From Gammaproteobacteria bacterium (GTDB lineage: Bacteria; Pseudomonadota; Gammaproteobacteria; JAJPIJ01), in contig JAJPIJ010000042.1 of assembly GCA_021324815.1 (NCBI GenBank), positions 9,505 through 73,504 of the forward strand: a stretch of 64,000 nt of DNA, in the 5' to 3' direction. The translations under genes were made by a program, and so were the position numbers. Under the pieces are notes generated by a model. The model searched no databases and was not told the origin of the DNA. It saw only the letters and a list, made by a program, of their open reading frames with translations. This document shows positions 2,944-26,103 of the stretch, one piece after another (the stretch's first letter is position 1; the number at the start of each line of letters is the position of its first letter).

Positions 2944-3747
2944 ATGCTAGTCCCTGAACACAGCGCATGCGGGCGTTTATGGGCCGTCATTGCCGGACTG
3001 CTCTGCGCCCTGTTGCCGCAGATCGGTGCGGCCGCCGACGTTCCCATCGTCGCCGCCGCCTCCGATTTGAAGTTCGCCCTGGAGGAAGCCGCCGCGGCCT
3101 TCACCCGCACCACCGGCCGGTCGGTCAGGCTGGTGTTTGGCTCCTCGGGAAATTTCCGCAGTCAGATCGCAGCGGGGGCGCCGATCGAACTTTTCCTGTC
3201 GGCGGACGAAGACCTCGTGACGGCTTTGCAGCATGAGGGACGCACCGCCGGCGGCGGCCGTCTCTACGCCATCGGCCGGCTGGCCTTGATGATACCGCGC
3301 GGTTCGCCACTCAAGGTCGATCCCGGGCTCGGTAACCTGCGCGTCGCCTTGACGGACGGACGCCTGCAAAAATTCGCCATCGCCAACCCCGATCATGCGC
3401 CCTACGGCAAACGGGCGAAGGAGGCGTTGCAGCATGCCGGTCTGTGGGGGGCGATCCAGCCGTTTCTGGTGCTGGGCGAGAATGTCGCCCAGGCCGCGGC
3501 GTATGCCACCTCGGGCTCGGCACAGGGCGGTCTCATCGCCTGGTCGCTGGCACGCTCACCGGGCATCGGCAGGCTTGGCGAAGCCGTCCTCATCCCCGCC
3601 GGGTGGCACTCGCCGCTCAGGCAGCGCATGGTTTTGATCAAGGGAGCGGGGTCCACCGCAGAGGCGTTTTACGCCTTCCTCACGCAGCCCGAGGCGCGGG
3701 CGATCTTTGAGCGCTACGGTTTCACGTTGCCCTCGGATGCCGACTGA
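2944..3747 (+). CDS. modA: Molybdate ABC transporter substrate-binding protein ModA.
   Basis: Signal-peptide-like N-terminus (MLVPEHSACGRLWAVIAGLLCALLPQIGAAA) followed by ModA-like sequence (...VRLVFGSSGNFRSQIAAGAPIELFLSADEDLV...AIANPDHAPYGKRAKEAL...). The gene is adjacent to modB and modC. Confidence 0.85.
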   Translation: MLVPEHSACGRLWAVIAGLLCALLPQIGAAADVPIVAAASDLKFALEEAAAAFTRTTGRSVRLVFGSSGNFRSQIAAGAPIELFLSADEDLVTALQHEGRTAGGGRLYAIGRLALMIPRGSPLKVDPGLGNLRVALTDGRLQKFAIANPDHAPYGKRAKEALQHAGLWGAIQPFLVLGENVAQAAAYATSGSAQGGLIAWSLARSPGIGRLGEAVLIPAGWHSPLRQRMVLIKGAGSTAEAFYAFLTQPEARAIFERYGFTLPSDAD

Positions 3748-3753
3748 AACGAC

Positions 3754-4414
3754 ATGGACTGGCAGGCGCTGTCGCTGTCGCTAAAACTGTCCACTTGGAC
3801 GGTGATCGTGCTGCTGCCGGCCGGCCTGCTGCTGGCACGCGAACTGGCCTGGCGCCGTTTTCGCGGCAAGAACTTGATCGAAGCCACGCTGTCGTTGCCG
3901 TTGGTGCTGCCGCCGACGGTACTCGGCTACTACTTGCTGGTGGCGATGGGCGGCAACGCGCCGGTGGGCCGATGGTACCAGCAATGGTCCGGTCACCCGC
4001 TGGTATTTTCCTTTGAGGGACTGCTGATTGCCTCCCTCATTTTCAACATGCCGTTTGCCGTGCCGCCCATGCAGCGGGCACTTGAAACCATTCCGAAGGA
4101 GATGCGCGAAGCCGCCGCCGTGTGCGGCTTGTCGCCGTGGCGGATATTTCGACTTGTCGAACTGCCGCTGGCCTGGAATGGCATTTTAACAGCCGCCGTG
4201 CTGACCTTCGCGCATACGCTGGGCGAGTTCGGCGTGGTGCTGATGGTGGGCGGCAGCATCCCCGGCGAGACGCGTACCATCGCAATCGCCATCTACGATC
4301 GCGTGCAGGCCTTCGACCGCGACGCCGCCAACAGCATGGCCGCATTGCTGCTGGCGTTGTCGTTTGTGGCAATCGTTGTCGCCCAACTGGGTGGTGGATA
4401 CCTCAGTCGCCGTC

Positions 4415-9017: not shown

Positions 9018-10811
9018 TCAGCCGCTGGTGCCGGTCAGACGCTTGTACAGAGCTTCAGTGGAGTACATCGGCAGCGAGCAGTTGTTATTCGTGCAGACAA
9101 AGACCGCGGTCCTGGCGAGCTTGGGGTATTGCACGTCCGGATTTGGCAGCGGCCCCTCGCCGCGGTCCCACCATTCCAGCCGTTTGTAAATTACCGGCCA
9201 GCGTCTGGCCGCATCGAAGAGTCCCCGCGCCGCGGCGTCGGATTTGACGCCGACCACGGTGATGTGCAGCGGCGCCTCCGAGAGTTCCTGATCAGCGAGC
9301 AGCAGGCCAGGCAATAAGCGCCGTTTGGCGATGACGCCGGGCGCCGTCAGATAGCGCATGGCGTGTTGCGCCAGCGCCTGATAACGCTCTTCGCCGGTGT
9401 AGTGGAACAGCAGGTTGGCGGTGCGCGCGACGGTCACGTTCTCGTCGATTTGCCGCACACCGCTGCGGAACACGCCCACCGCGCCTGCCGCCACCGGCGC
9501 GGTCAGGAAACCACCGTCATCCGCCTTGAAGCTGCGTTCAATAAAGTCCATGGCCGCGCGCGCCTGCGCCAGCCAGTCGCGCTTCCCGGTGGCGGCGTAG
9601 AGATCAAGGAAAGCGCGCGCCATGTAGATGCTGTCGCCCAGTTGCGGCGCTGAATTCGCGTCGGCTTTCAATTCGCTGTGACTGAATCCACCGGCGGGCA
9701 ATTGCCGCTGCGCCAGCACCCAGCGGGCTGCATTCTCCGCCAGTGACAGGGCCCCGCTGTCGCCCGTGGCGTTGGCATGGGTGACCAGTGCGTGGATGGC
9801 CCAGCCGTTTTCGCTCCCGTAGATATGACGATCGATGGGTGGCCAGGCGTGGGCGCGGCGCTCGGCGTCACTCCAACCATAAAATGTCCTGCCCATGAGT
9901 TCCATCGAGACGTCGGCGTCCTGGCTCGTGTAAAACGCGCCCTCCGGCGTGCGCAGAAAGTCGCGGAGATAGTGATAGATCAATTGCGCGGCCTTCAAAT
10001 CGCGCGGCTCGTGCCACTGCGCCCAGGCCAGCGAATAGTGCTGCAAATACTGCGACTGGAAGGACATGATCTTTTCAAAGTGCGGGTCGTTCCAGGTGGG
10101 GCCGGCGGAGTACTGATACACCCCGCCCCACACGGGATCGATGAGAGCCTGCCCGGCATCCAGCGTCTGCCGCGCCATTTGCCGGTATCGCTGGTCACCG
10201 GCACCGGCCCGGAGCAGCGCCAATTCCATGCTGTCGCCGTCGATGTATTTCTGCTCCGTGCCCCAGCCACCGTATTGCCGGTCGTACAGCGAGAGGTAAT
10301 CATCCATTATTTCCCCGCGGGCTTCGGCGTTGAGCAGGTGTGATTGGGCGGTCTCCAGCGGCTGTTCGGAGAACACGGAAGGACCGGGCGTGGGGTCGCC
10401 GATGACGGCCTGGAGGAGGGCGGCGAACCGATCCGGCGGGATGTAGCCGCGGCGTTTGACGATCTCGGTGCCGTCCGGCGCGAACACCACCGTGGCCGGC
10501 CAGCCGTAGTCCTCGTAGCGGTTGGAGAGCTCCGGGTTGGCGTCCTGATCGACGCGCACCGGCAGGTAGCGGGACTGCACCAGTTTAATCACCGCCGGAT
10601 CGCGATAAGTGGTCTCCTCCATGACGTGGCACCAGTGGCACCACACCGCGCCCAAGTCGAGCAGCACGAAGCGGTGCTCCCGCCGGGCGCGCTCGAACAG
10701 GCCGGGATCCCACCCCTGCCACTCAATGCCGGCGCCACGGGCGCCGTCCGCGCCCGCCACCAGCAGTATGCACAACGTCAATACCCTGCCCATGCGACCA
10801 TCCCCCTGCAT
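9018..10811 (-). CDS. Thioredoxin-domain protein of the DUF255 / YyaL / N-acylglucosamine 2-epimerase-like family, with a signal peptide.
   Basis: The 597-aa protein has a signal-like N-terminus (MGRVLTLCILLVAGADG) and the thioredoxin-like WCHWCHVME motif of DUF255. A long alpha/alpha-toroid-like C-terminal region follows. An alternative start at 10793 is possible. Confidence 0.8.
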   Translation of the reverse strand: MQGDGRMGRVLTLCILLVAGADGARGAGIEWQGWDPGLFERARREHRFVLLDLGAVWCHWCHVMEETTYRDPAVIKLVQSRYLPVRVDQDANPELSNRYEDYGWPATVVFAPDGTEIVKRRGYIPPDRFAALLQAVIGDPTPGPSVFSEQPLETAQSHLLNAEARGEIMDDYLSLYDRQYGGWGTEQKYIDGDSMELALLRAGAGDQRYRQMARQTLDAGQALIDPVWGGVYQYSAGPTWNDPHFEKIMSFQSQYLQHYSLAWAQWHEPRDLKAAQLIYHYLRDFLRTPEGAFYTSQDADVSMELMGRTFYGWSDAERRAHAWPPIDRHIYGSENGWAIHALVTHANATGDSGALSLAENAARWVLAQRQLPAGGFSHSELKADANSAPQLGDSIYMARAFLDLYAATGKRDWLAQARAAMDFIERSFKADDGGFLTAPVAAGAVGVFRSGVRQIDENVTVARTANLLFHYTGEERYQALAQHAMRYLTAPGVIAKRRLLPGLLLADQELSEAPLHITVVGVKSDAAARGLFDAARRWPVIYKRLEWWDRGEGPLPNPDVQYPKLARTAVFVCTNNNCSLPMYSTEALYKRLTGTSG

Positions 10812-10871
10812 CAGATGCCGCAGCGAATACGTGACGTTACAATAACCGGACGCAGGATGGAGTCAGCGGCC

Positions 10872-10881
10872 GGGGGGGGGG
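10872..10881. repeat. G10 homopolymeric tract in the divergent promoter region between the DUF255 gene and dapB.
   Basis: Ten consecutive G residues (ccGGGGGGGGGGc), read directly from the sequence. Confidence 0.9.
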
Positions 10882-10915: not shown

Positions 10916-11761
<846 letters not shown>

Positions 11762-11838
11762 CGGCTGGCTCCGTGTAACGAACGGCGATGGTTCGTCATC
11801 TTTGATTTCAGGCTGGCGGCAACATTCACCGGCAAATC

Positions 11839-12708
11839 ATGTCCAATCCAACCATGACCAAATCCGGAACATCCGCCGAGCGGCCTTACCTCGGTTTCGG
11901 ACTGGGACTGCGTCCCGATCACTACGAAACCATTCTGAACGAACGCCCGGCCGTGGACTGGTTCGAGATCATTTCCGAGAACTACATGGTGGACGGCGGC
12001 AAGCCGTTGCATATGCTCGATCGCATCCGCGCCGATTACCCCATGGTCATGCACGGCGTGTCGCTGTCCATCGGCGGCAGCGATCCGCTGGACCGCGAAT
12101 ACCTGAAGCGGCTCAAGGCGCTGGCCGCGCGCGTCGAGCCGCGCTGGATTTCCGATCATTTGTGCTGGACCGGCCTCGACGGGAAAAACATGCACGACCT
12201 GCTGCCGCTGCCCTACACCGCGGAGGCGGTGGCGCACGTCGCCGCGCGCGTGCGGGAGGTGCAGGATTTTCTCGGCCGGCGCATTCTGTTGGAGAACGTG
12301 TCGAGTTACGTCACCTACAAACACTCGACGATGAGCGAATGGGAATTTCTGGCGGCGATCGCCGCGCGCGCCGACTGCCTCATCCTGCTCGATGTCAACA
12401 ACATCTACGTGAGCGCGCACAACCACGGCTTCGACCCGCACGATTTTCTCCGCGGCATCCCGCCGGAGCGGGTCTGGCAGTTCCATCTTGCCGGACATTC
12501 CCATGACGGCCCCCTCATCGTGGACACGCACGATCACTCCATCATCGATCCGGTGTGGGAGCTCTACCGCGCCGCCGTGCGCCGCTTCGGGCGCGTCTCC
12601 ACCATGATCGAGCGCGACGATCACATCCCGCCGCTGGCGGAGCTGCTGGCGGAACTCGATCACGCCCGCCGCATCGCCGCGCCGGTGCTGGCGGAGCTGG
12701 CCGCATGA
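11839..12708 (+). CDS. MNIO (multinuclear non-heme iron oxidative enzyme) of the DUF692/UPF0276 family (MbnB/TglH/BufB-like).
   Basis: The 289-aa protein has the DUF692 hallmark blocks [11 protein letters not shown]...[10 protein letters not shown]...[11 protein letters not shown]...SDHLCWTG...LLPLPYT...LLENVSSY...[18 protein letters not shown]...FHLAGH...DTHD. Its stop overlaps the start of the DUF2063 partner (ATGA). Confidence 0.85.
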
Positions 12709-13487
12709 CCGCATTGCGACGGCTGCAGGAGGATTTCCAGTCCTATCTGCTGGAAGGCCGCACCGCCGTCGAAACGCGGGTGGTCGATGCGCCGCCGGCA
12801 TCCGCCGCCGAGCGGCTGGCGGTGTACGGCCATGCCTACCGCGCGCGGCTGGTTGAGGCCCTGGGCAAGGATTTTCCCGTGCTCAAGACATTGTTCGGTG
12901 ACGAGGAGTTTCAGGCCATGGGGGCAGCCTACGTCGCGGCTCATCCCTCGCGCCATCCCTCCATTCGCTGGTTCGGGCGTCATCTCGCCGGCTTCTTGCG
13001 TGACAACGATCCCTACCGCTTCCGGCCGGCGCTGGCGGAGATCGCGGCCTTCGAATGGGCGCAGGGCGAGGTCTTCGACGGTTTGGATGCGCCGGCGGTG
13101 ACCGTCGAGGCGATGGCCGCAATCCCGCCGCCACGGTGGGCGGCGCTGCGGCTGGGTTTCCAGCCCACGCTGCGGCAGTTGGAGCTGTACTGGAACGTTC
13201 CCGCGCTGGTGCAGGCGGCGCAGAAACAAGAGTCGTTGCCGGCGCCCGAACGAAGCGATGCGCCGGTCCGCTGGCTTTTATGGCGGCGGGAGTTGCTCAT
13301 CTACTGGCGTTCCATCCCCGATGACGAACGTTGGGGTCTCGATCTGTGCCGGCGCGGCGGCACGTTCGGCGAACTGTGCGAATTTTTGAGCAAGCGCACG
13401 GCGGCGGAGGAGACTCCGGCGCGGGCGGCCGGCATGCTCAAACAGTGGCTCACGGACGGCTTGGTGTGCCGTCTGAATCTTGATTGA
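12705..13487 (+). CDS. DUF2063-family protein (MNIO partner; BufC/HvfC-like putative RiPP recognition/DNA-binding-like domain).
   Basis: The 260-aa protein contains ...[12 protein letters not shown]...[46 protein letters not shown]...[11 protein letters not shown]..., typical of DUF2063. It is translationally coupled to the DUF692 gene. Confidence 0.8.
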
Positions 13488-14079
13488 CCCGGGTCTTGCG
13501 CTCGTAGGCGATCCGTCGCGATTGCCAGTCGTACGCCGCCTCGATGCGCGCGGTTGCCGTGGTGAAGAGATCATCGCCCGCGCCGTACTCCCGCAACAAC
13601 CGCTCTTCCGCGGCCGCGTTGGTTTCCAGCGCGCCATCCGCGAGGATGTGTTGGATGGGCAGTGCCCCATCCCGCAACTGGCGCGTCACCAGAATCATGC
13701 GGTGACAGGTGATCGGATCGCGCTCCGCGCACAGCAGCGCGGCGCGCTCCGACCCGGCATAGGTGATCAACTCCGCCAGCCCGCGCCGGAACGCCGTGGT
13801 GGCTGCGAGGCGCGAATACACCACCCCGCCGTCCTGATAGCACGAGGCATCCCTTGTTCTGGCGCCCAGCGCATCGCCCATGAAGCGATAATGGATGCGT
13901 GCCTGTGCCAGGTTCTTCTGCAACGCTTCGCGGCGGTATTGCGGGTGACGCCGGCTGTAGGGTGACGAGCGGGCGTCACAGATCAGCGTGATCCGGTGCC
14001 GGCGCAGCAGTTCCAGGAAATAATCCCACGGATGGTTGGAATGGCCGGCGGTGAAGAGACCGGCGGTGGCTGAAGCCAT
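13450..14079 (-). CDS. DUF488 family protein.
   Basis: The 209-aa protein has the DUF488 N-terminal block [50 protein letters not shown]. Its 3' end overlaps the DUF2063 gene convergently by 38 nt. Confidence 0.7.
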
Positions 14080-14613: not shown

Positions 14614-14712
14614 CTATTTTTTCTTGGGCGTGGGACGTTTGTGCGGGCGGGTTTTGCCATAGCTGCCCCTGAATAATTTGCCGCGACGGGTGCTTCGGTC
14701 ACCTTTGCCCAT
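14614..14712 (-). CDS. 30S ribosomal protein bTHX (32 aa), below the ORF-track size cutoff.
   Basis: The minus-strand ORF translates to [32 protein letters not shown]. This is close to Thermus Thx ([27 protein letters not shown]). An RBS (GGGAGGA) lies 7 nt upstream of the ATG. The gene sits immediately downstream of fmdB on the same strand. Confidence 0.65.
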
Positions 14713-14729: not shown

Positions 14730-14945
14730 TTAATTGACGGCGCAGGAACCGGGCGCGTTGCCACAGCGCCCGCAGACTTCATCGCCGGATGATTCAACGC
14801 CGCTGCCGCCGCCGACGGCAAAGGCGGACATCTGCCTGCGCAGCGCCCGGCCGCCGCAGCCGGGGCATTGCGCCTCGGCATCCGTGCGTACCAATGTTTC
14901 GAACTGGCAGCCGCAATGGTCGCATTTGTATTCGTGGATGGGCAT
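14730..14945 (-). CDS. FmdB-family zinc-ribbon protein.
   Basis: The 71-aa protein has [18 protein letters not shown]...CPGCGG...SAFAV... plus a Cys/Gly-rich tail. This is the classic FmdB putative-regulatory zinc-ribbon architecture. Confidence 0.8.
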
Positions 14946-15278: not shown

Positions 15279-16673
15279 ATGGCTCTTCATGGCATGGCCC
15301 GCTTGGGGGCGCATGTGTGGTGCAGGCGGGTGGTCGCGTGCAGTCTTCTGATGATGGTGGTCGACAGGGTTCGCGCGGATGATCTCTGGGGGGCGTTGAC
15401 CGGTGGCAAGCCGGATTTGTATCTGCGCTATCGTTACGAGCAGGTCCATGACGGGCAGACGCCGTCGCTCAAGGACGCCTATGCCAACACGCTGCGCACC
15501 GCGCTGGGCTACAACACGGGGCTGTATCACGATTTCGGCGCCTATGTGCAATTTCAGGATGTGCGCGTGATTGGCAATGATCATCTTTTCAACGACGGCG
15601 GCATCAACGGCGTGACCCACCGCGCCACGGTGGTCGATCCGGAGCAGACCGAACTGCACCAGGCCAACTTGCGTTACCGCGGCCTGCCGAAGACGACGCT
15701 GATCCTGGGCCGGCAGGAAATCCTGGATCACGGCCAGCCGCCCTTCAACCGTTACCTCGGCAACGTCCTGTGGCGGCAGAACTGGCAGAGTTTCGACGCC
15801 TTGCGCGCCGTCAACCAATCCCTGCCCGCAACCAAGATTGACTATGCCTACATCTGGAACGTCAACCGCGTCTTCGGCCAGGACAATCCAATCCCGGACC
15901 GCGCCAACTTCCGGATGGACAGCCACGCCGTGGACATCACCTACTCCGGTTTCACCTGGGGCACTTTCTATCCCTATGCCTACCTGCTGGATTTCGACAG
16001 CGATGTTGCGGCCACGCAGGTGATGACCACCGCCACGTATGGGTTGCGCTTCTCTGGCGCCTACGATCTCGTCACCCAGGCCGCCAAGATTCTCTACACC
16101 GGCGAGTTCGCGCACCAGCAGGACTGGCGCGGCAATCCCGTCAAGGTCGACGAAAATTACTACCTCGGCGAGCTGGGCTTTTCCAAGCTGTTCAACAATC
16201 CCGCGTTTCAATCGGTGACGATCAAGGGCAGCTACGAGGTGCTGGAAGGCGGCGGCCCCGCAACCGTCACCATCGGCAAGACCACCTCGACGGTCGCCGT
16301 CGCCTTCCAGACGCCGTTGGGGACGAACCACGCCTACCAGGGCTGGGCGGATCGCTTCCTCATCACGCCGAAGGACGGCGTGAACGATCTTTACGGCACC
16401 ATGAGCGCGCAGGTGTACGGCGCCAATCTGGCGGTCGTCTACCATGATCTTTCCGCCAACAATCTGGAGTATGACTACGGCACGGAGTGGGATCTGCAGC
16501 TCACCCGCACGTTCGGCGAGCATTACACCTTCGGCCTGAAATATGCGGATTACAACGCCGACCGGAACGCCACCAACCTGGCCCGCAACGCGCCGAAAAA
16601 CACCGCCACCGACCAGTTCAAACAGGCCTTCGATCTGACCAAGTTCTGGGCCTGGATCGAGGTCAAATTCTGA
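15279..16673 (+). CDS. Alginate-export (AlgE)-family outer-membrane beta-barrel porin, first gene of the nasTS unit.
   Basis: The 464-aa protein has a signal peptide and beta-strand-rich sequence ending with a C-terminal Phe (..WIEVKF), typical of an OMP. The N-terminal region (DLWGALTGGKPDLYLRYRYEQV...) resembles AlgE/alginate export family proteins. An RBS (AGGAAGGA) precedes the ATG at 15279. Confidence 0.7.
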   Translation: MALHGMARLGAHVWCRRVVACSLLMMVVDRVRADDLWGALTGGKPDLYLRYRYEQVHDGQTPSLKDAYANTLRTALGYNTGLYHDFGAYVQFQDVRVIGNDHLFNDGGINGVTHRATVVDPEQTELHQANLRYRGLPKTTLILGRQEILDHGQPPFNRYLGNVLWRQNWQSFDALRAVNQSLPATKIDYAYIWNVNRVFGQDNPIPDRANFRMDSHAVDITYSGFTWGTFYPYAYLLDFDSDVAATQVMTTATYGLRFSGAYDLVTQAAKILYTGEFAHQQDWRGNPVKVDENYYLGELGFSKLFNNPAFQSVTIKGSYEVLEGGGPATVTIGKTTSTVAVAFQTPLGTNHAYQGWADRFLITPKDGVNDLYGTMSAQVYGANLAVVYHDLSANNLEYDYGTEWDLQLTRTFGEHYTFGLKYADYNADRNATNLARNAPKNTATDQFKQAFDLTKFWAWIEVKF

Positions 16674-16681
16674 GGGTTCAA

Positions 16682-17308
16682 ATGCCGGCGATGCCACGAC
16701 CCACCGAGCAGGCGGTGACCGAACAGCAGCGGCCGCTGCGCGTCATGCTGGTCGACGATTATCCGGAGCGGGCGGAGGTGCTGGAGCGCGCCTTGACCGC
16801 CTCCAGCCACCAGATCGTCGCCCGCCTGGGCAGCGGCGCCAACCTGCGCGCGGAGGTGACCCGTCTCGCCCCCGACGTGGTCATCATCGACCTCGATTCG
16901 GCGGATCGCGACATCCTCGAGGACATGCACGCCATCAATCGCGAGCAGCCGCGGCCGGTGGTGATGTTCACCCGCGATGACGACCCGGCGCTGATCAAGA
17001 GCGCCGTGCACGCGGGGGTGAGCGCCTACGTGGTCGGCGGCCTCGACCCGCGGCGGGTGCTGCCGATCCTGAACGTCGCCATCGCCCGCTTCGAGCAGTT
17101 CCAGGCGTTGCAGCGCGAGCTGGACGACGCGCGCACGGCGCTGGCCGAGCGTAAATGCATCGAGCGCGCCAAGGGCATCCTCATGAAGCAGCGGCGGATG
17201 GATGAGGAGGCCGCCTACGCCGCCATGCGCAAGATGGCCATGGATCGCAACCTCAAGCTGGTGGACCTGGCCCGCAGCCTGATCGCGGCGGCGGATCTGC
17301 TGGTATGA
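16682..17308 (+). CDS. nasT: Nitrate-responsive antiterminator NasT (response-regulator receiver plus ANTAR RNA-binding domain).
   Basis: A receiver domain (LRVMLVDDYPERAEVLERAL...VVIIDLD...) is followed by an ANTAR domain (...ARTALAERKCIERAKGILMKQRRMDEEAAYAAMRKMAMDRNLKLVDLARSLI). Confidence 0.9.
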   Translation: MPAMPRPTEQAVTEQQRPLRVMLVDDYPERAEVLERALTASSHQIVARLGSGANLRAEVTRLAPDVVIIDLDSADRDILEDMHAINREQPRPVVMFTRDDDPALIKSAVHAGVSAYVVGGLDPRRVLPILNVAIARFEQFQALQRELDDARTALAERKCIERAKGILMKQRRMDEEAAYAAMRKMAMDRNLKLVDLARSLIAAADLLV

Positions 17309-17321
17309 AAGGACCACGGGC

Positions 17322-18590
17322 ATGAGCGGCGGATCCGCCGGCAATGCGCCGCCGCGGCCGCGGGCGACGGTGACGCCGCTGCGGCCGAGATTGCGGACGG
17401 CCCTGCGCGTCGGCGGCTCGGATGCGCCCGAACGGCGCGAGGTGACCGTCGGTTTCATCCCACTCACGGATTGCGCGCCCATCGCCGTGGCCTCGGCGCT
17501 GGGATTCGACCGCAAGCACGGAATTGTCATCCGGCCGCGGCGGGAAGGCTCGTGGGCCGCGGTGCGCGACAAGCTGGTGAACGGCGCCATCGACGTCGCC
17601 CACAGTCTCTACGGCCTTATTTACGGCATACAGCTCGGCATCGGCGGAACGCGCCATGACATGGCGGTGCTGATGACGTTGAACCAAAACGGCCAGGCGA
17701 TCACGCTCGGCAATCACCTGCGCGACGCCGGCGTCACCGATGCCGTCGCGCTGGCGCGGCACATCGCCGGCCGGCGCGGCGAACTGGTGTTCGCCCACAC
17801 CTTTCCCACCGGCACGCACGCCATGTGGCTGTATTACTGGCTGGCGGCGCACGGCATCGATCCGCTCGCGGACGTGCAGACGCTCACCGTCCCGCCGCCG
17901 CAGATGGTCACCCAGCTCCGCTTGTCGGACATCGACGGCTACAGCGCCGGCGAGCCGTGGAACGCGCACGCGGTGCAGGAGGGCGTGGGATTCACCGTCG
18001 CCACCTCGCAGCAGGTGTGGCCGGATCACCCGGAGAAGGTGCTGGCCGCCACCGCCGACTTCGCGCGCCAGAACCCGAACACCGCGCGGGCGCTGGTGAT
18101 GGCCCTGCTGGAGGCGGCGCGTTACATCGACAATCCCGCGCACCATGAGATGGTGGCGCACGTGCTGGCCGCGCGCGGCTGCATCAACACCGACACCGGC
18201 CTGCTGCTGCCGCGACTGCGGGGTGACTACAAGGACGGCCTCGGCCGCCGCTGGCACGACGGGCGGGCGGTGCGGTTCCACGGCGACGGCAGCGTCAACT
18301 ATCCGTATCTGTCGGACGGCATGTGGTTCATCACCCAGCACCGGCGCTGGGGACTGCTGCGGCAGGATCCGGACTATCTGGCGATCGCGCAACAGGTGAA
18401 CCGCATCGATCTGTACGCGCAGGCGGCCGCGGCCGTCGGCGTGCCGCTGCCGTCGTCACCGTTGCGCAGTTCGACGCTGATCGACGGGCGGTTCTGGAAC
18501 GGCGGTGACCCGGCGGCTTACGCCCGCGGCTTTCCCATCATGGCGGCGGTGCGGGTCGGACAAGTCTCATCCAAAAGCGCCCATGACTGA
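17322..18590 (+). CDS. nasS: Nitrate/nitrite sensor NasS (NrtA-like periplasmic-binding fold, cytoplasmic partner of NasT).
   Basis: The 422-aa NrtA/SsuA-like protein has no signal peptide (...VTVGFIPLTDCAPIAVASALGFDRKHGIV...). It is positioned directly after nasT, as in Azotobacter/Pseudomonas nasST. Confidence 0.85.
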   Translation: MSGGSAGNAPPRPRATVTPLRPRLRTALRVGGSDAPERREVTVGFIPLTDCAPIAVASALGFDRKHGIVIRPRREGSWAAVRDKLVNGAIDVAHSLYGLIYGIQLGIGGTRHDMAVLMTLNQNGQAITLGNHLRDAGVTDAVALARHIAGRRGELVFAHTFPTGTHAMWLYYWLAAHGIDPLADVQTLTVPPPQMVTQLRLSDIDGYSAGEPWNAHAVQEGVGFTVATSQQVWPDHPEKVLAATADFARQNPNTARALVMALLEAARYIDNPAHHEMVAHVLAARGCINTDTGLLLPRLRGDYKDGLGRRWHDGRAVRFHGDGSVNYPYLSDGMWFITQHRRWGLLRQDPDYLAIAQQVNRIDLYAQAAAAVGVPLPSSPLRSSTLIDGRFWNGGDPAAYARGFPIMAAVRVGQVSSKSAHD

Positions 18591-18606
18591 TCATTGCGGT
18601 GCTGCA

Positions 18607-18625
18607 GTGCACTGAATCGGTGCAC
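18607..18625 (+). promoter_or_regulatory. NtrC-like enhancer site GTGCAC-N7-GTGCAC upstream of the second sigma54 promoter.
   Basis: In tGCACtgaatcgGTGCac, the GCAC and GTGC half-sites are separated by 7 nt as in TGCACCANNNTGGTGCA. The site is 63 bp upstream of the -24 element. A second weaker copy lies at 18620-18640. Confidence 0.4.
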
Positions 18626-18687
18626 CAAGCCACGTGGTGGAAGAGTGCGGAGTAAATAAGGCCTTGTATTTCTGCATGTTGTAATGA

Positions 18688-18703
18688 TGGCAAGGGGTTT
18701 GCA
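18688..18703 (+). promoter_or_regulatory. Sigma54 (-24/-12) promoter TGGC-N7-TTGCA for the nrtABCD-nirBD-nasA operon.
   Basis: TGGCaaggggtTTGCA matches the sigma54 consensus spacing. It lies about 220 nt upstream of the nrtA start, consistent with a regulated leader. Confidence 0.55.
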
Positions 18704-18720
18704 AAGGCGGTAACTCGGAA

Positions 18721-18810
18721 CCGGCAGTGTGTGCACACCGCTGCCGGCACATAGGCTCATCACCCAACGGCGGGTTGTGCGGCTGAAGCGAACGGCGGGG
18801 AAATCCCCGC
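18721..18810 (+). other. Leader RNA hairpins (candidate NasT/ANTAR binding stem-loops) in the nrtA 5'-UTR.
   Basis: Stem-loop 1 is CCGGCAGtgtgtgcacaccgCTGCCGG (18721-18747). Stem-loop 2 is GCGGGGaaatCCCCGC (18795-18810). Both lie between the sigma54 promoter and a terminator hairpin. Confidence 0.5.
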
Positions 18811-18826
18811 GGTGTCGCTAGCGGAC

Positions 18827-18880
18827 AAAGGCGTCCGGCAGGTGGCGGAAGGTTCGCCCCCGCCGACGCCTTTTTCATTT
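18827..18880 (+). terminator. Rho-independent leader terminator (attenuator) upstream of nrtA, the expected target of NasT antitermination.
   Basis: AAAGGCGTCcGGCaggtggcggaaggttcgcccccGCCGACGCCTTTTTcaTTT forms a GC-rich stem followed by a T-run, 30 nt before the nrtA RBS. Confidence 0.6.
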
Positions 18881-18909
18881 GTGACTGAAACCATGAACCG
18901 TAGGAGGAT

Positions 18910-20295
18910 GTGATGAACAAATTGTTTTCAATCGTACCTGGCGCGACCCGCCGTCGCCTCGGGAGACTTTCGTATTTATTGCCGGCCGCGCTGGCCCTGC
19001 TGCTGGGCGCCATGAGCAGCGGCGCGCCGGCGGCGGAAAATGTGGAGAAGGCCGAACTCAAGTTCGGTTTCATCAAGCTGACCGACATGGCGCCGCTCGC
19101 CATCGCCTATGAAAAGGGCTTCTTCGAGGACGAGGGCCTGTACGTGACCCTGGAGGCGCAGGCCAACTGGAAGGTGCTGATTGACCGGGTGATCGACGGC
19201 TCGCTCGACGGCGCCCACATGCTCGCCGGCCAGCCCATCGGCGCGACCATCGGCATCGGCACCCAGGCCGATGTCATTACTCCGTTCAGCATGGACCTGA
19301 ACGGCAACGCCATCACGGTATCGAACGAAATCTGGAATGCGATGAAGGCCAACATCAAGATGGGCGCCGACGGCAAGCCCGAACATCCCATCTCGGCGGC
19401 GGCGCTGAAGCCCGTCGTCGACAAGTACAAGGCCGAGGGCAGGAAGTTCAACATGGGCATGGTGTTCCCGGTGTCCACGCACAATTACGAACTGCGCTAT
19501 TGGCTGGCAGCCGGCGGCATCAATCCGGGCGCCTACTCGCCGACCGACATTTCAGGCCAGATCAACGCCGACGTGTTGTTGTCGGTGACGCCGCCGCCAC
19601 AGATGCCGGCCACGCTGGAGGCGGGCACTATCCTGGGCTATTGCGTGGGCGAACCGTGGAACCAGCAGGCCGTCTTCAAGGGCATCGGCGTGCCCGTCAT
19701 CACCGACTACGAGATCTGGAAGAACAATCCGGAAAAGGTGTTCGGCATGACCCGGGCCTTCGCGGAAAAGTATCCCCGCACCACGATCGCCATCACCAAG
19801 GCGCTGATCCGGGCCGGCATGTGGCTGGATGCCGACAACGGGAAAAACCGCGCCGAGGCGGTGAAGATCCTGTCGCGCCCGGAATACGTCGGCGCCGACG
19901 CCGACGTCATTGCCAACAGCATGACCGGCACCTTCGAGTATGAAAAGGGCGACAAGCGCTCGTTGCCCGACTTCAATGTATTTTTCCGCTACAACGCAAC
20001 CTATCCGTACTACTCCGACGCGGTGTGGTACCTGACCCAGATGCGCCGCTGGGGCCAGATCAGCGAGGCCAAGCCGGATTCCTGGTATGACGAAGTGGCG
20101 AAGAAAGTCTACCGTCCCGACATCTACAAAGCCGCCGCCGAGGCGCTCATCAAGGAGGGCAGGATGAAGGCCGGGGATCTGCCGCAGACCGACGGCTACA
20201 AGCCGCCGACCAGCGCTTTCATCGACGGCATCGAGTACGACGGCAGGAAACCCAACGATTATCTGGCGAAGTTCGCCATCGGCAACAAGAAATAA
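18910..20295 (+). CDS. nrtA: Nitrate ABC transporter periplasmic substrate-binding protein (NrtA/NasF).
   Basis: The 461-aa protein has a signal peptide (..[20 protein letters not shown]) and an NrtA-like fold (...[29 protein letters not shown]...). An RBS (AGGAGGA) is present. Confidence 0.9.
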
Positions 20296-20357
20296 CCGGA
20301 CGCGCCGCAGAGGAAGATACTCGCGGCCCGGATTGATGCAGTGAGGAGATCGATGAA

Positions 20358-21383
20358 ATGAAGATGAACCTGACACGGCTGGCCCATTTTCTTGACCAGG
20401 CCGGCCTGACCTGGTTCGCGCCGGTCATCCGGTTGTGCGCCGGCGAGGATCCAGGCGCGCAGTTGAAAAGCCTGTGGATGCTGATCGGCGTGCCGCTCGT
20501 GGCGCTGGTGATGTTCCTGGGCTTGTGGAACGCCACCGCCGCCGGCGTGCAGACCAGTCTCGGCGCCATCCCGGGTCCGGCGCAGGTGTGGCGGGAGTTC
20601 CGCAACCTGGTGGAAAGCCATCACGAGGAGCGGGCCAAGGCGCAGGCCTTCTACGACCGGCAGCGGGCGCGCAACGCGGAGCTGCTGGCCCAGGACCCCG
20701 GCGCCAGGGTCGAGATCCGGCCATGGACCGGCAAGCCGACGTTCTTCGATCAGATCCTGACCAGTCTCAAGACGGTGTTCACCGGCTTCCTGCTGGCCTC
20801 GCTGGTGGCGGTGCCGCTCGGCATCCTCTGCGGCACCAGTCGCGTCGTCATGGCGGCGCTGAATCCGCTCATCCAGATATTCAAGCCGGTGTCGCCACTC
20901 GCCTGGCTGCCGATCGTGACCCTGATTGTCAGCGCGGCGTACGCGAGCAACGACGGCTGGGTGCCCAAGTCGTTCATCGTTTCGGCGATCACGGTGACGC
21001 TCTGCTCGCTGTGGCCGACGGTGATCAACACCGCCGTCGGCGTCGCCTCGGTGGACAGGGACCTCATCAACGTCGCGCGCGTGCTGCAACTGTCGTGGAC
21101 CACGCGCATCGTCAGGATCGTCATTCCCTCGGCCCTGCCGCTCATCTTCACCGGCCTGCGCCTGTCGCTGGGCGTGGGCTGGATGGTGCTGATCGCCGCC
21201 GAGATGCTGGCGCAGAATCCGGGCTTGGGCAAGTTCGTGTGGGATGAGTTCCAGAACGGCAGCTCGCAGTCGCTGGGCCGCATCATGGTGGCGGTGCTGA
21301 CCATCGGCCTCATCGGCTTTCTGCTCGACCGCCTCATGCTGACGCTGCAGCAATTGTTCAGCCACGGTGAGCAGCGCTCGTGA
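20358..21383 (+). CDS. nrtB: Nitrate ABC transporter permease (NrtB/NasE).
   Basis: The 341-aa polytopic membrane protein has an ABC permease EAA-like region (...[45 protein letters not shown]...). Confidence 0.9.
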
Positions 21384-23148
21384 GCGGCCGTCCGGGATGA
21401 GGATGACCATGATGCTGTCACCGTTGAAAAGAAGGGAAATCGCGGCGCCGGAGACGACACCGGCGACTGCGCAATTATCCGCGCCAGCGCTGCTGGAACT
21501 GAAGGGCGTCGGCAAGTCCTACGGGCGCGGCGCGCAGGCCACCCCCGTGCTCAAGGACATCAATCTTGCCATCCGCGAGGGGGAGTTCATCGCCATCGTC
21601 GGATTCTCCGGCAGCGGCAAGACCACGCTCATCTCGCTCGTCGCCGGCCTGATCCGGCCGGATGCGGGGGCGGTGCTGAAGAACGGCCGTCCCGTCACGG
21701 GGCCGGGACCGGATCGCGGCGTGGTGTTCCAGAATTATTCGCTGATGCCGTGGATGACGGTGTACCAGAACGTGGCCCTGGCGGTGAACCAGGTCCACCG
21801 GCATCTGCCGCCGGCGGAACGCCGGGCGCGCATCGAAAAGTACATTGGCATGGTGAACCTGACGCCGGCGATGGAGAAAAGGCCGGCGGAGCTGTCCGGC
21901 GGCATGCGCCAGCGCGTGGCGGTGGCCCGCGCCCTTGCCATGAGCCCGGACATCCTGCTGCTTGACGAGCCGCTGTCGGCGCTCGACGCGCTGACGCGCG
22001 CGAAATTGCAGGATGAAATCATCCGCATCTGGGAGCAGGAAAAAAAGACGGTGATCCTCATCACCAACGACGTCGACGAGGGGCTCATGCTCGCCGACCG
22101 CATCATTCCGCTTCAGCCCGGCCCCGGCGCAACGCTGGGACCCGCGTTTCCGGTCGATCTGCCGCGGCCGCGCGATCGCAGGGCGATGAACCATGATCCG
22201 GCCTTCAAGCGCCTGCGCCGCGAAGTGACCCAGTACCTGATGGACGCGGGCATGGCGCGTCAGCAGGCCGCGGATCAGGAGGTCAGGCTGCCCGACGTGC
22301 TGCCCGTCACCGCGCGGGAGCTGCAGCCGATCGGCACCGTCCATCATGACGCGCTGTCGGAGTTGGAGCTTGAACGCTATGTCGATTTCGCCGGGGTGTC
22401 GAAGATTTATCCCACGCGCAAGGGGCCGGTGAAGGTGGTGAAGGATTTCAATCTGCACGTCCGCAAGGGCGAGTTCATCTCCATCATCGGCCGCTCCGGC
22501 TGCGGCAAGTCCACGGTGCTGTCGATGGTCGCCGGCCTGAACGACATCAGCGCGGGCGGCATCACCCTCAATTACCGCGAAATCGACGCCGCCGGGCCGG
22601 ACCGTGGCATCGTCTTCCAGTCGCCGAGCCTGGTGCCGTGGCTGTCGGCCTACGACAACGTCCGCCTCGGCGTCGATCGCGTCTATCCGCACGTCTCCGC
22701 GCGGGAGCGCCGCGACATCATCACCTATTACCTGACCCGCGTCGGCCTGGCGAATGCCATGGACAGGAAGGCGGCGGAACTTTCCAACGGCATGAAGCAG
22801 CGCGTCGGCATCGCCCGCGCCTTCGCCCTGTCGCCCAAGCTGCTGCTGCTGGACGAGCCCTTCGGCATGCTGGATTCGCTGACGCGCTGGGAGTTGCAGG
22901 AGGTGTTGATGGAGGTGTGGACGCGCAGCCGGCTCACCGCCATCATCGTCACGCACGACGTCGACGAGGCCATCCTGCTCGCCGATCGCGTGGTGATGAT
23001 GACCAACGGTCCGAACGCACGCGTCGGCAGGATCATGAACGTGGACCTGCCGCGCCCGCGCACCCGCAGGCAACTGCTCGATCACCCGGATTACTACCGC
23101 CTGCGCGAGGGTCTCATCGACTTCCTCGCCGCATGCGATCACCCCTGA
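21367..23148 (+). CDS. Nitrate ABC transporter ATP-binding protein with two fused ATPase cassettes (NrtD-NrtC-like fusion).
   Basis: Two Walker A motifs (GFSGSGKTT and GRSGCGKST), two LSGGM/LSNGM signatures and two Walker B regions are present. The start is ambiguous: GTG at 21367 overlaps nrtB, and ATG at 21397 is an alternative. Confidence 0.85.
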
Positions 23149-23162
23149 ACAAAGGAGGCGCC

Positions 23163-25646
23163 ATGAACAGGGAAAAGCTCGTGTTGGTCGGCAACGGCAT
23201 GGCCGGCGTGCGCACGCTGGAGGAGCTGCTGAAGCTCGCGCCAGACAAGTACGACGTCACCGTCTTCGGCGCCGAGCCGCACCCGAACTACAACCGCATC
23301 CTGCTGTCGCCGGTGCTGGCCGGCGAGAAGACCGTGGATCAGATCATCCTCAATGACGAGGCATGGTACGACGGGCACGGGATCACCCTGCACAAAGGCA
23401 GAATGGTCACGCGCATCGACCGCAGGCAGCGGCGCGTGCGCACGGCGGACGGACTGGAGGCCGCCTATGACCGGCTTATTCTGGCGACCGGCTCGCATCC
23501 CTTCATGCTGCCCGTCCCGGGGCGCGACCTGCCGGGCGTGGTGACCTTCCGCGACATCCACGACGTCGATCGCATGCTGGCGGCGGCGGCGCGGGGCGGC
23601 AGGGCGGTGGTCATCGGCGGGGGGCTGCTGGGCCTCGAAGCGGCGAGCGGCCTTTCCAAACGCGGCATGGACGTGACCGTGGTGCATCTGCTGGAGACGC
23701 TCATGGAGCGGCAACTCGATGCCGCCGCCGCGGCGCTGCTCAAACAATCGCTGGAAGCGCGCGGGATCAAGTTCCTCACCGGCCGCGAGACCCAGGCCAT
23801 ACTCGGCGATGATCATGTGCGCGGCGTGCGTTTCAAGCCTGCCCTGAGCAAAGTCGAAGGGGACGGCGGGGAGGTTGCCGCCGATCTGGTGGTGATGGCC
23901 GTCGGCATCAAGCCGAACATTGATCTGGCGAAGTCCGCGGGCCTGTACTGCGAGCGCGGCGTCATCGTCAACGACACCATGCAAACCTACGACCCCCGCA
24001 TCTACGCGGTCGGCGAATGCGTGCAGCACCGCGGCCGGAGCTACGGGCTGGTGGCGCCGCTCTTCGAGCAGGCCAGGGTCTGCGCCAATCATCTGGCCGA
24101 GCTCGGCTTCGCGCGCTACGGCGGCTCCGTCACCTCCACCAAGCTCAAGGTCACCGGCATCGATCTGTTTTCCGCCGGCGATTTTCAGGGCGGCGCCGGC
24201 ACCGAGGAGATCGTGCTCAAGGACGCCACCCGCGGCGTCTACAAGAAACTGGTGCTGAAGGACAACCGCATCGTCGGCGGCGTGCTGTACGGCGACACCG
24301 TCGACGGCTCGTGGTACTTCCAGTTGATGAAGGACGGCACCGACGTCGCGCACCTGCGCGATCATCTGCTGTTCGGCCAGGCGCATCTTGGCGATTCGGG
24401 CCACGGCGAGAAGGTGAGCCAGGTGGCGGCGATGCCGGACCACGCCGAGATCTGCGGCTGCAACGGCGTCTGCAAGGGCGCAATCGTCCGCGCCATCATC
24501 GATAGGAAGCTGTTCACGCTGGACGAAGTGCGCGCCCACACCAAGGCCTCGAGCTCCTGCGGCTCCTGCACCGGCCTGGTCGAGGAACTGCTGGCCTCGA
24601 CCGTCGGCGCCGATTACACGCAGACGCCCAAGACCCGGCCGCTGTGCCCCTGCACCCATTACACGCACGAGGAGGTGCGTCGCGCTATCCTCGACAACGA
24701 ACTCAAAACCATTCCCGCCGTGCGCGCGTTTATGGAATGGAAGACGCCGGACGGCTGCCACATCTGCCGGCCCGCGCTCAACTATTACCTGATTTGCGCC
24801 TGGCCGGGCGAATATGCGGACGACGCCCAGTCGCGCTTCATCAACGAGCGCGCCCACGCCAACATCCAGAAGGACGGCACCTACTCGGTGGTGCCGCGCA
24901 TCTGGGGCGGCATCACCAGCCCGCAGCAGTTGCGCGCCATCGCCGACGTCGCCGAGAAATACCGGGTGCCGACGGTGAAGATCACCGGCGGCCAGCGCAT
25001 CGATCTCCTGGGCGTGAAGAAGGAGGACCTGCCGAAGGTGTGGGGCGATCTCGCTGAAGCGGGCTTCGTCTCCGGCCATGCCTACGGCAAGGCGCTGCGC
25101 ACGGTCAAGACCTGCGTCGGCTCCGAGTGGTGCCGCTTCGGCACGCAGGACTCGACCACCATGGGCATCCGGCTGGAGAAAATGACCTGGGGCGCGTGGA
25201 CGCCGCACAAGGTCAAAATGGCGGTGTCCGGCTGCCCGCGCAACTGCGCCGAGGCCACCATCAAGGACTTCGGCGTGGTCGCCGTGGATTCCGGCTGGGA
25301 ACTGCACGTCGGCGGCAACGGCGGCGTCAAGGTGCGCGCCACCGATCTGTTGTGCAAGGTGGAAACCATGGAGGAGGTGGAGGAATACTGCGCCGCCTTT
25401 CTGCAGCTCTACCGCGAGGACGCGCGCTATCTCGAGCGCACCGCGCCCTGGATCGAGCGCGTGGGGCTTGAATTCGTCAGGAAATCCATCGTTGACGATG
25501 AGGAAAACCGCCGGCGCCTGGCGGCGCGGTTCCGCGATTCGCAGCAGCACGCGCAAAAGGATCCCTGGGCCGAGCGCGCCGCCGGCGTGCAGCGCCAGGA
25601 ATTTGCGCCGCTCAAGACCGTTCCGGCAGTCCGCGCGGTCGCGTAA
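23163..25646 (+). CDS. nirB: Assimilatory nitrite reductase [NAD(P)H] large subunit.
   Basis: The 827-aa protein has an FAD/NAD fold at the N-terminus (KLVLVGNGMAGVRTLEELL), BFD-like [2Fe-2S] Cys pairs, and siroheme/[4Fe-4S] cysteine clusters (..KTCVGSEWCRFG.. and ..SGCPRNCAEA..). An RBS (AAAGGAGG) precedes the ATG at 23163. The upstream in-frame extension to 22638 is an artefact. Confidence 0.9.
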   Translation: MNREKLVLVGNGMAGVRTLEELLKLAPDKYDVTVFGAEPHPNYNRILLSPVLAGEKTVDQIILNDEAWYDGHGITLHKGRMVTRIDRRQRRVRTADGLEAAYDRLILATGSHPFMLPVPGRDLPGVVTFRDIHDVDRMLAAAARGGRAVVIGGGLLGLEAASGLSKRGMDVTVVHLLETLMERQLDAAAAALLKQSLEARGIKFLTGRETQAILGDDHVRGVRFKPALSKVEGDGGEVAADLVVMAVGIKPNIDLAKSAGLYCERGVIVNDTMQTYDPRIYAVGECVQHRGRSYGLVAPLFEQARVCANHLAELGFARYGGSVTSTKLKVTGIDLFSAGDFQGGAGTEEIVLKDATRGVYKKLVLKDNRIVGGVLYGDTVDGSWYFQLMKDGTDVAHLRDHLLFGQAHLGDSGHGEKVSQVAAMPDHAEICGCNGVCKGAIVRAIIDRKLFTLDEVRAHTKASSSCGSCTGLVEELLASTVGADYTQTPKTRPLCPCTHYTHEEVRRAILDNELKTIPAVRAFMEWKTPDGCHICRPALNYYLICAWPGEYADDAQSRFINERAHANIQKDGTYSVVPRIWGGITSPQQLRAIADVAEKYRVPTVKITGGQRIDLLGVKKEDLPKVWGDLAEAGFVSGHAYGKALRTVKTCVGSEWCRFGTQDSTTMGIRLEKMTWGAWTPHKVKMAVSGCPRNCAEATIKDFGVVAVDSGWELHVGGNGGVKVRATDLLCKVETMEEVEEYCAAFLQLYREDARYLERTAPWIERVGLEFVRKSIVDDEENRRRLAARFRDSQQHAQKDPWAERAAGVQRQEFAPLKTVPAVRAVA

Positions 25647-25668
25647 TTGCGCGTGGAGTCGAAACAAC

Positions 25669-26097: not shown

Positions 26098-26103
26098 CTT
26101 GAA

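Follow-up and report, generated by a model that had tools for sequence, protein, structure and literature searches.

A Buf2-type bufferin maturase pair, very probably orphaned by deletion of its precursor genes, that may still act in trans

The 64 kb stretch of DNA analysed here (the window) carries two adjacent plus-strand genes, bufB and bufC, between dapB and a convergent gene. dapB (10952–11761) is recognized by TIGR00036 with 331.9 bits. bufB (11854–12708) encodes an MNIO (DUF692) bufferin maturase of 284 amino acids when read from the conserved ATG, and bufC (12705–13487) encodes its DUF2063-domain partner of 260 amino acids (PF09836, E = 1.7e-24). The DUF488 gene (13450–14079) lies on the minus strand and shares 38 nt with the end of bufC. 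The first-pass annotation had placed the pair between dapB and this convergent gene, and all of its coordinates and features are confirmed. It had also described the two maturase genes as coupled; the start of bufC indeed lies inside the stop codon of the MNIO gene (gccgcATGAccgc), and this ATGA overlap is the arrangement expected of translational coupling. An in-frame ATG upstream, at 11839, opens a longer plus-strand reading frame for bufB (11839–12708, 289 amino acids). The gap from dapB to this first ATG is exactly 77 nt, as had been reported, and grows to 92 nt should the second ATG (11854) be the true start. The latter is the likelier start because close homologues (P0001–P0003, 87–100% identical) are annotated at 284 amino acids, which corresponds to the second ATG, and because a syntenic orthologue, L004, has its upstream ATG/GTG in another frame, as read from the alignment. 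The earlier remark that 17 residues precede the LGFGLGLR motif is literally true of the 11839 reading frame, but these residues form no special feature, position 11854 being the likelier start.

The MNIO protein covers positions 2–262 of the 263 positions of the PF05114 profile (E = 8.1e-117). It scores 401.9 bits against the MNIO_BufB equivalog model NF050167 (cut-off 310), the sole MNIO model that it passes, and its best match in the PDB is 3BWW (E = 5e-58). The iron ligands of MbnB are His54, His90, Glu133, Asp163, Asn166, His192, Asp208, His210 and Glu239 (PMC9060507). Equivalents of all nine, matched to the MbnB positions by alignment and spacing, are present in BufB as H67, H102, E147, D180, N183, H211, D224, H226 and E253, and these positions are invariant in six relatives. 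BufC, a partner protein of PME type 1, has the same length, 260 amino acids, as the orthologues in L004 and in a second relative, L001; its characterized relatives have an RRE-like C-terminal half. Both genes are free of internal stops and frameshifts, and both reading frames are intact in the window, in the independent assembly L172 and in L001 and its near-identical counterpart L002. The possibility raised earlier that the MNIO is a degenerate relic that has lost its iron ligands does not hold, and a degenerate enzyme is ruled out by the intact ligands, length and coupling. Read from their sequences, the two genes almost certainly encode a canonical BufBC pair, the maturase of a Buf2-type bufferin. 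The proposal that a DUF692/DUF2063 pair represents the enzymatic core of a RiPP system is thus borne out, the system being of the bufferin type, as indicated by the BufB equivalog score.

In the characterized systems, BufB and BufC turn the cysteines of the small Sec-exported protein BufA into 5-thiooxazoles in the cytoplasm; once modified, BufA is exported to the periplasm, where it acts as a copper buffer. Both proteins are needed for this modification, and together they suffice for it; each Cys loses 4 Da to become a 5-thiooxazole, and the signal peptide is dispensable for the reaction. The conversion by both proteins is known solely from BufB1/BufC1 of Caulobacter vibrioides (PMC11626156). 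The Buf2 system of the same bacterium consists of BufA2, BufB2 and BufC2 (CCNA_03001–02999; PMC11626156). Like the window, it possesses an MNIO and DUF2063 pair assigned to the same equivalog family of NCBIfam, in an operon without DoxX and, like the orthologues of the window pair, it has a six-Cys Sec-exported BufA2 alongside. Unlike the C. vibrioides system, the window has no bufA2 in cis and its pair directly follows dapB. HvfB/HvfC of Haemophilus influenzae (oxazolin) and the H. somnus DUF692 protein 3BWW share with the window pair the MNIO fold, the ligand set and a DUF2063 partner. The window pair, however, falls below the Hvf equivalog cut-offs (NF003818/NF050145; HvfB, 287.5 against 360 bits; HvfC, a weak 48.5 against 142 bits), and the Hvf precursors belong to another type (EGKCG). 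MbnB/MbnC resemble the window pair in the nine iron-ligand positions of MbnB and, by analogy, probably in chemistry, the oxidation of Cys to a copper-binding heterocycle. They differ in that window BufB reaches only 69.8 bits against the MbnB model TIGR04159 (cut-off 325), its partner is a DUF2063 protein rather than MbnC, and an MbnA-type peptide is absent.

Precursor genes were sought with BufA2 and BufA1 HMMs built in this analysis and run with --max on stop-to-stop segments of at least 25 amino acids; no precursor was detected in any of the six frames of the 64 kb window, whereas the same HMMs found one upstream in 70 of 80 related loci. Neither tblastn nor scans for Cys-rich or signal-peptide ORFs, regular expressions included, found a precursor in the window, in agreement with the earlier observation that no small Cys-rich secreted ORF is visible nearby. 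It had further been suggested that the substrate might be an unrecognized small ORF. This is essentially excluded, as is any precursor hidden within the locus or close to it: the six-frame scans are negative and the spacer of 77–92 nt is too short, has no significant structure (z = +0.9) and matches no Rfam family. DoxX was likewise without a match among the eight flanking proteins scanned. It is also missing beside the bufA2BC genes of four related loci (L003–L006), and its absence is not disqualifying because the C. vibrioides buf2 operon lacks DoxX too. An adjacent Cys-containing precursor with a Sec signal (BufA1, PF10048, or BufA2, NF050166) is found in L004 and not in the window; such a precursor characterizes the gene cluster and has no part in defining the enzyme family.

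The syntenic orthologue L004 (JGI 3300038770, Ga0376158_058694) reads dapB, bufA2, bufA2, hairpin, bufB, bufC, DUF488, mscL. It shares with the window the flanking genes and their order, from a DsbH-like gene and dapB to DUF488 and mscL, and the conserved 40–70 nt or so upstream of bufB; its BufB and BufC are 87 and 75% identical to those of the window. Unlike the window, L004 carries two tandem precursor genes and a 15 bp terminator- or attenuator-like hairpin in a dapB–bufB interval of about 950 nt. The two BufA2 proteins have 81 and 89 amino acids and six Cys each; one has a Sec signal and the other is a lipoprotein with a lipobox. In Sulfuricaulis limicola the upstream 93-amino-acid protein scores 89.9 bits against the BufA2 model NF050166 (cut-off 60), and a BufA2 gene lies immediately upstream in 70 of the 80 closest homologous loci with sufficient upstream sequence. 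Since L004 keeps the bufA2 genes between dapB and bufB, the orphan state is best read as a secondary deletion and not as a distinct architecture, and on this comparison the window pair was very probably orphaned in that way. The idea that the pair represents an MNIO system variant not yet described is contradicted both by the BufB equivalog score and by the two BufA2 genes of the syntenic orthologue. The first-pass annotation had also considered that orthologous pairs might always adjoin dapB with a distant, already described substrate; they do adjoin dapB, but in L004 BufA2 is adjacent rather than distant. An ECF sigma/ChrR gene pair, present directly before dapB in both L001 and L004, is missing from the window as well, a loss compatible with erosion of the locus.

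L001 is without precursor genes as well, and its dapB–bufB spacer measures 246 nt against 77 nt in the window, so the deletion end-points differ. In a tree of BufB plus BufC the window falls outside the (L001, L004) group in 297 of 300 bootstraps, which suggests two independent losses, in the window lineage and in that of L001/L002; a single deletion shared by the ancestor of the window and L001 appears in 3 of 300. Shared downstream synteny and the lower dS of the window–L001 comparison cast some doubt on the two-loss reading. A third group of precursor-less bufBC loci (L029, L035 and L049) is a clade next to uvrA. Could the precursor genes be present in the organism and have been collapsed or mis-joined in assembly or binning? 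The assemblies are derived from metagenomes, and short repeated bufA2 copies could collapse in principle. The independent assembly L172 (GCA_037025165.1), however, is 99.94% identical to window positions 11138–12726, including the dapB–MNIO junction, which is consequently no assembly artefact, and the precursor-less junction of L001 is reproduced at 99.8% identity by L002, which comes from a different archive. We regard such an artefact as extremely improbable.

The remaining spacer between dapB and bufB (11762–11853, plus strand), from which the bufA2 precursor genes are gone, can be read as the putative scar of the deletion. Only its bufB-proximal 40–70 nt or so can be aligned with relatives. 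Collinearity with L001 in blastn restarts at window position 11814, and the proximal spacers of the window and L001 reach a Smith–Waterman score of 35, against 13.7±2.5 for shuffled sequences. The spacer lacks a sigma-70 consensus, and the only hairpin in it (11778–11796) is weak. A bufA2 remnant was also sought in the longer spacer of L001 and was rejected, its local alignment to the bufA2 region of L004 scoring 19 against 17.9±2.3 for shuffles.

Whether the pair has remained under selection was judged from NG86 dN/dS values and three-taxon branch decomposition, which give rough estimates at the present GC3 and dS (0.35–1.2) and serve only for comparison with flanking genes. bufB shows no relaxation of selection and gives 0.09 against L001 (range 0.09–0.10), bufC gives 0.15–0.23 and dapB is higher than bufB at 0.16–0.20. 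On the window branch (star decomposition) omega is about 0.10 for bufB and 0.24–0.35 for the flanking genes, which makes bufB the gene under the strongest constraint in this neighbourhood. For bufC, omega is about 0.20–0.25 on the two orphan branches, about twofold above the L004 branch (about 0.09), and bufC may be slightly relaxed. In the uvrA-adjacent clade dN/dS is 0.18–0.28 with dS up to 0.8, and the ligands are intact in L029 and L035, the two members checked.

These values bear on the possibility that the pair is a young relic, made useless by the deletion of bufA2, still intact for lack of time and bound to decay. If the two losses are independent and possibly recent, the low pairwise dN/dS may largely reflect the time before the deletions. 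The tree and the different deletion end-points fit such a history, as do the concurrent loss of the neighbouring ECF sigma/ChrR pair from the window, the lack of a visible dedicated promoter upstream of bufB and the modestly raised omega of bufC on the orphan branches. No trans precursor has come to light in the 64 kb window either. For the relative GCA_035501935.1 (locus tag VMH34_), the best 120 of 758 BufA2 matches include no protein and the 600 rows listed from a scan of genome collections include no contig, listings too short to count against a precursor in that genome; two candidate trans precursors, P0237 and P0149, were rejected for it, as both belong to other assemblies. Against decay stand the intact reading frames in the window, L172 and L001/L002, the retention of all nine metal ligands and of the ATGA coupling, the strong constraint on bufB along the window branch and the purifying selection on another precursor-less bufBC clade at a dS of about 0.8. 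Stand-alone precursors in need of a trans maturase are, moreover, common. We consider a young relic possible but on the whole rather unlikely.

A substrate encoded in trans remains a live option. Among 80 genomic BufA2 loci, at least seven are free of an MNIO gene within 2 kb or more; a locus in a Sulfuricaulis MAG (L173) consists of ECF sigma/anti-sigma, BufA2 and DoxX genes without a maturase, and stand-alone BufA2 loci are present in the same bacterial family as the window. Sizeable proportions of precursor genes stand alone, some genomes combine several precursors with one MNIO–partner pair, and none of 864 genomes has Buf2 precursors without any MNIO (PMC12452194). Such stand-alone loci, L173 included, form the reciprocal half of the present case, precursor and maturase being at separate loci; that survey starts from precursors and does not draw attention to maturase pairs that have lost their cis precursors through deletion (PMC12452194).

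The pair might instead have acquired a new class of substrate, a non-bufferin or unrecognized Cys-containing protein. None of the known precursor types occurs within the 64 kb, and MNIO clusters lacking an identified precursor, the adjamnio-II and -III families, are found in the literature. One candidate would be a Cys-rich FmdB zinc-ribbon gene (14730–14945), which is also kept in L001/L002. The FmdB family, however, is ubiquitous and cytoplasmic; it is absent around L004, nothing supports the gene as an alternative substrate, and no other gene of the window is linked to the pair. BufB scores above its equivalog threshold, and its 87% identical orthologue has two BufA2 genes as neighbours; neofunctionalization is therefore not indicated, and we hold a new substrate class to be quite improbable.

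The reading that we favour, with modest confidence, is that of a Buf2-type BufBC whose cis precursors were deleted and which is functional on a precursor encoded elsewhere. The ancestral locus, as the syntenic orthologue L004 shows, very probably contained dapB, two bufA2 genes, the hairpin and bufB–bufC. A deletion of about 0.85 kb in the window lineage then removed both precursor genes, their promoter region and the hairpin, placing bufBC 77–92 nt behind dapB, where the pair is presumably now transcribed by read-through from dapB. Judging from gene integrity and constraint, it seems somewhat probable that bufBC is still active in trans, in which case it would mature at least one bufferin precursor encoded elsewhere in the genome. 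The ECF sigma/anti-sigma–bufA2–doxX arrangement without maturase, as in Sulfuricaulis, exemplifies the type of locus that could supply it. A further, unlikely extension is that precursor-less BufBC pairs are maintained as hub maturases for dispersed and separately regulated substrates, for instance ECF-sigma-controlled bufA2–doxX loci; more speculatively still, they might serve a non-bufferin Cys protein.

The locus guards against over-reading, in that a precursor-less MNIO/DUF2063 pair does not by itself denote a new RiPP class: comparison with one syntenic orthologue suffices to explain the present pair as what a deletion left of a standard Buf2 operon. The recurrent loss of cis precursors next to an apparently constrained maturase complements the stand-alone bufferin precursors already published, and action of BufBC in trans on dispersed precursors could suitably be examined in the window lineage, in L001 and in the uvrA-adjacent clade. 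Such action would matter for counting bufferin copies and for predicting copper-resistance capacity from genome sequences. If the pairs did serve as hubs, the repeated loss of cis precursors would represent a route by which a RiPP system uncouples the expression of its enzyme from that of its substrate.

The MNIO gene bufB (11839–12708, plus strand) follows dapB (10952–11761, plus strand; TIGR00036, 331.9 bits) after a gap of 77 nt and matches PF05114 (MbnB_TglH_ChrH) over its full length (E = 8e-117). Its stop codon shares an ATGA with the start codon of bufC, which begins at 12705 on the plus strand and encodes a 260-aa protein with a DUF2063 domain (PF09836, E = 1.7e-24). A convergent DUF488 gene (13450–14079, minus strand) overlaps bufC by 38 nt (13450–13487), and mscL lies beyond it. 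The pair reported in the first-pass annotation is thus real, its coordinates, translational coupling, 77-nt gap and convergent neighbour all being borne out, and the dapB–MNIO junction recurs at 99.94% identity in an independent assembly (L172; GCA_037025165.1). The N-terminal MNIO residues singled out in the same annotation are ordinary, since close homologues (87–100% identical) are called at 284 aa, the length obtained from the second ATG at 11854, and in the syntenic orthologue L004 (JGI 3300038770) the aligned upstream ATG/GTG is out of frame with the MNIO; the second ATG is the more likely start. The DUF488 ORF of the window carries a C-terminal extension that is absent from L004 and from L001 (a relative, GCA_035501935.1), where bufC and the DUF488 gene do not overlap. 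Further downstream on the minus strand, a 32-aa basic ORF (14614–14712) occupies the position of an L001 gene that matches Pfam Thx (ribosomal protein) and lies beside an eight-cysteine FmdB-family zinc-ribbon gene (14730–14945), and both are conserved in L001. The region 16487–28866 resembles an assimilatory nitrate/nitrite cluster, as judged from the L001 Pfam table and ORF sizes only, with an ANTAR response regulator, NMT1-type binding proteins, ABC permease components and large nirB- and nasA-like ORFs.

Against NCBIfam NF050167 (MNIO family bufferin maturase; equivalog cut-off 310) the MNIO reaches 401.9 bits, and it falls below the cut-offs of the HvfB (287.5 versus 360), ApyH (99.1 versus 400), MbnB (69.8 versus 325) and ChrH (45.4 versus 600) models. 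Among solved structures it matches the H. somnus DUF692 protein 3BWW best (E = 5e-58). In MbnB, iron is ligated at nine positions, His54, His90, Glu133, Asp163, Asn166, His192, Asp208, His210 and Glu239 (PMC9060507). Alignment and spacing place their equivalents in the 284-aa MNIO at H67, H102, E147, D180, N183, H211, D224, H226 and E253; all nine are present and are invariant in six relatives. The bufC product has the length of its orthologues and no internal stops. The score, the ligands and the full-length partner together indicate that this is a canonical and apparently intact BufB/BufC pair. A degenerate enzyme is ruled out by the nine ligand positions and by the intact bufC, and the relic lacking iron-ligating residues that the first-pass annotation had considered is not what was found.

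No precursor gene was detected adjacent to the pair or elsewhere within the 64 kb window, in agreement with the initial reading. A tblastn search with one related BufA2 as query gave matches at chance level only, none of them lying in an open reading frame that had a signal peptide or the cysteine pattern of BufA2, and two screens of the window for cysteine-rich or signal-peptide ORFs recovered no precursor. HMMs for BufA2 (built from five sequences) and BufA1 (from two), run with --max in all six frames on every stop-to-stop segment of 25 aa or more, gave no match in the window; the same models found a precursor in most related loci. Folding of the dapB–bufB spacer as RNA is not significant (z = +0.9), and the spacer matches no Rfam family and lacks a σ70 consensus.

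The window derives from an uncultured gammaproteobacterium for which Sulfuricaulis and Thiogranum are the closest named relatives. In S. limicola (MNIO 78% identical) a 93-aa protein encoded 60 nt upstream of the MNIO gene scores 89.9 bits on the BufA2 model NF050166 (cut-off 60), and three further loci (L005, L006 and L171) have the order DsbA, BufA2, BufB, BufC. The decisive comparison is with L004 (MNIO 87% identical), which shares synteny with the window on both sides, from a DsbH-like thioredoxin gene and dapB to bufB–bufC, the convergent DUF488 gene and mscL. Its dapB–bufB interval holds two BufA2 genes, encoding 81 aa with a Sec signal and 89 aa with a lipobox, each with six cysteines in the pattern CxGxNxCK...CKGQNxCKGKGF. 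Between the second bufA2 and bufB (L004 5853–5915) lies a 15-bp perfect hairpin, CAUGGGCCGGAUGUC-UUCG-GGCAUCCGGUCCGUG, followed by the U-run CGCUUUUAUG; it is missing from the window and resembles an intrinsic terminator or attenuator that would set the precursor:enzyme ratio. Only the 40–70 nt or so nearest bufB can be aligned among L004, L001 and the window. Taken with the L004 synteny, this indicates that the window arrangement is a deletion derivative of dapB-bufA2-bufA2-bufBC. The suggestion of an undescribed MNIO variant is not supported, given the NF050167 score and an orthologue with BufA2 genes in place; the locus is a standard Buf2-type bufferin maturase pair whose cis precursor genes have been lost by deletion.

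The precursors are likewise missing from L001 and L002 (GCA_035501935.1; MNIO 91% identical), where the spacer is 246 nt long, differs from that of the window and in L001 holds no detectable bufA2 remnant. A neighbour-joining tree of BufB plus BufC, rooted with L003, L005 and L006, groups (window,(L001,L004)) in 297 of 300 bootstraps. This topology and the differing end-points argue for two independent deletions, with some doubt because the window and L001 share downstream synteny and have the lower dS between them. Thioredoxin-fold or disulfide genes (DsbB, DsbA-like Thioredoxin_4, Thioredoxin_2, DsbH-like DUF255) repeatedly adjoin bufA2BC in this clade (L003 9792–11330; L005 4519–5280; L006 4371–5093; window 9018–10811), which may relate to the flanking cysteine pair of bufferins or may be coincidence.

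Both ORFs, their ATGA coupling and the ligands are intact in the window. Pairwise dN/dS is 0.09–0.10 for bufB and 0.15–0.23 for bufC, beside 0.10–0.20 for dapB and 0.10–0.22 for mscL. A three-taxon decomposition of pairwise distances gives window-branch ω values of about 0.10 (bufB) and 0.25 (bufC); those of four flanking genes are 0.24–0.35, so there is no specific relaxation. If the deletions are recent, however, the low dN/dS is mainly a record of the period preceding the loss, and bufBC could be a young relic left behind. The window has also lost a regulatory pair: in L001 (5538–6871), L002 and L004 (3074–4152), the interval from the DsbH-like thioredoxin gene to dapB holds an ECF σ70 gene and a ChrR-type (Cupin_7) anti-σ gene, whereas only about 88 nt (10792–10879) remain there in the window. 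A young relic is therefore a serious rival, if the less likely reading. Under the favoured reading of a functional pair, bufBC would be expressed by read-through from dapB and would mature a BufA encoded elsewhere in the genome.

Precursor-less pairs were surveyed in 87 loci, comprising the window, six relatives (L001–L006) and the 80 nearest MNIO loci from metagenomes. BufA2 lies immediately upstream of bufB in 70 of the 80 loci with enough upstream sequence, and no precursor was detected within 700 nt upstream in the other ten. The window, L001 and L002 account for three of these; in two (L019 and L063) BufA2 lies elsewhere in the locus, and L061, a short contig, has nothing recognizable upstream. 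Another, L033, encodes upstream of its MNIO a 99-aa lipoprotein (3612–3911) with a partial BufA2 motif (NACKNVSSCK) and then a seven-histidine run, which may represent a bufferin-like precursor, divergent and rich in histidine, that the BufA2 HMM misses. The last three, from soil metagenomes (L029 4001–5670; L035 3992–4882; L049 3992–4876), share a bufB–bufC pair with a GTGA overlap, divergent from a uvrA-like gene on the minus strand, and have no precursor within 4 kb. Their MNIOs are 76–88% identical, with dS up to 0.8 and dN/dS of 0.18–0.28, and the ligands are intact in the two members checked (L029 and L035); the clade seems to have kept its orphan maturase pair stably.

Stand-alone precursors also occur. 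Among the matches listed, an MNIO gene is adjacent in 66 of 80 genomic BufA2 loci and clearly absent in at least seven. In a Sulfuricaulis MAG (GCA_054638735.1; L173 3068–4911), ECF σ and zf-HC2 anti-σ genes on the minus strand diverge from BufA2 (91 aa) and DoxX; the locus adjoins ychF-pth-prs, and neither an MNIO gene nor a DUF2063 gene lies within 4 kb of it. Other Sulfuricaulis MAGs have a complete bufA2BC-dsbB operon. A stand-alone 85-aa BufA2 downstream of TPR genes (L167 3946–4203; locus GC 0.663) comes from JGI 3300005541, also the source of L029 (GC 0.670); the two contigs, though not linked, may represent one organism. Proteins of the L001 assembly (prefix VMH34_) do not appear among the 120 BufA2 matches listed, the two candidates followed belonging to other assemblies. 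According to the published MNIO survey, a substantial share of both Buf1 and Buf2 precursor genes is unlinked to MNIO genes, none of 864 genomes has Buf2 precursors without an MNIO, and some genomes have several precursors with a single MNIO–partner pair (PMC12452194).

In the characterized family, BufB contains two or three Fe ions, whereas BufC combines a DUF2063 N-domain with an RRE-like C-domain; together the two proteins are necessary and sufficient for turning precursor cysteines into 5-thiooxazoles, each Cys losing 4 Da, and the modified bufferin is exported and then binds copper in the periplasm (PMC11626156). By analogy, the window pair would perform the same cysteine-to-5-thiooxazole chemistry. 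The interest of the locus is modest and lies in its being one of several natural examples where BufBC may act in trans.
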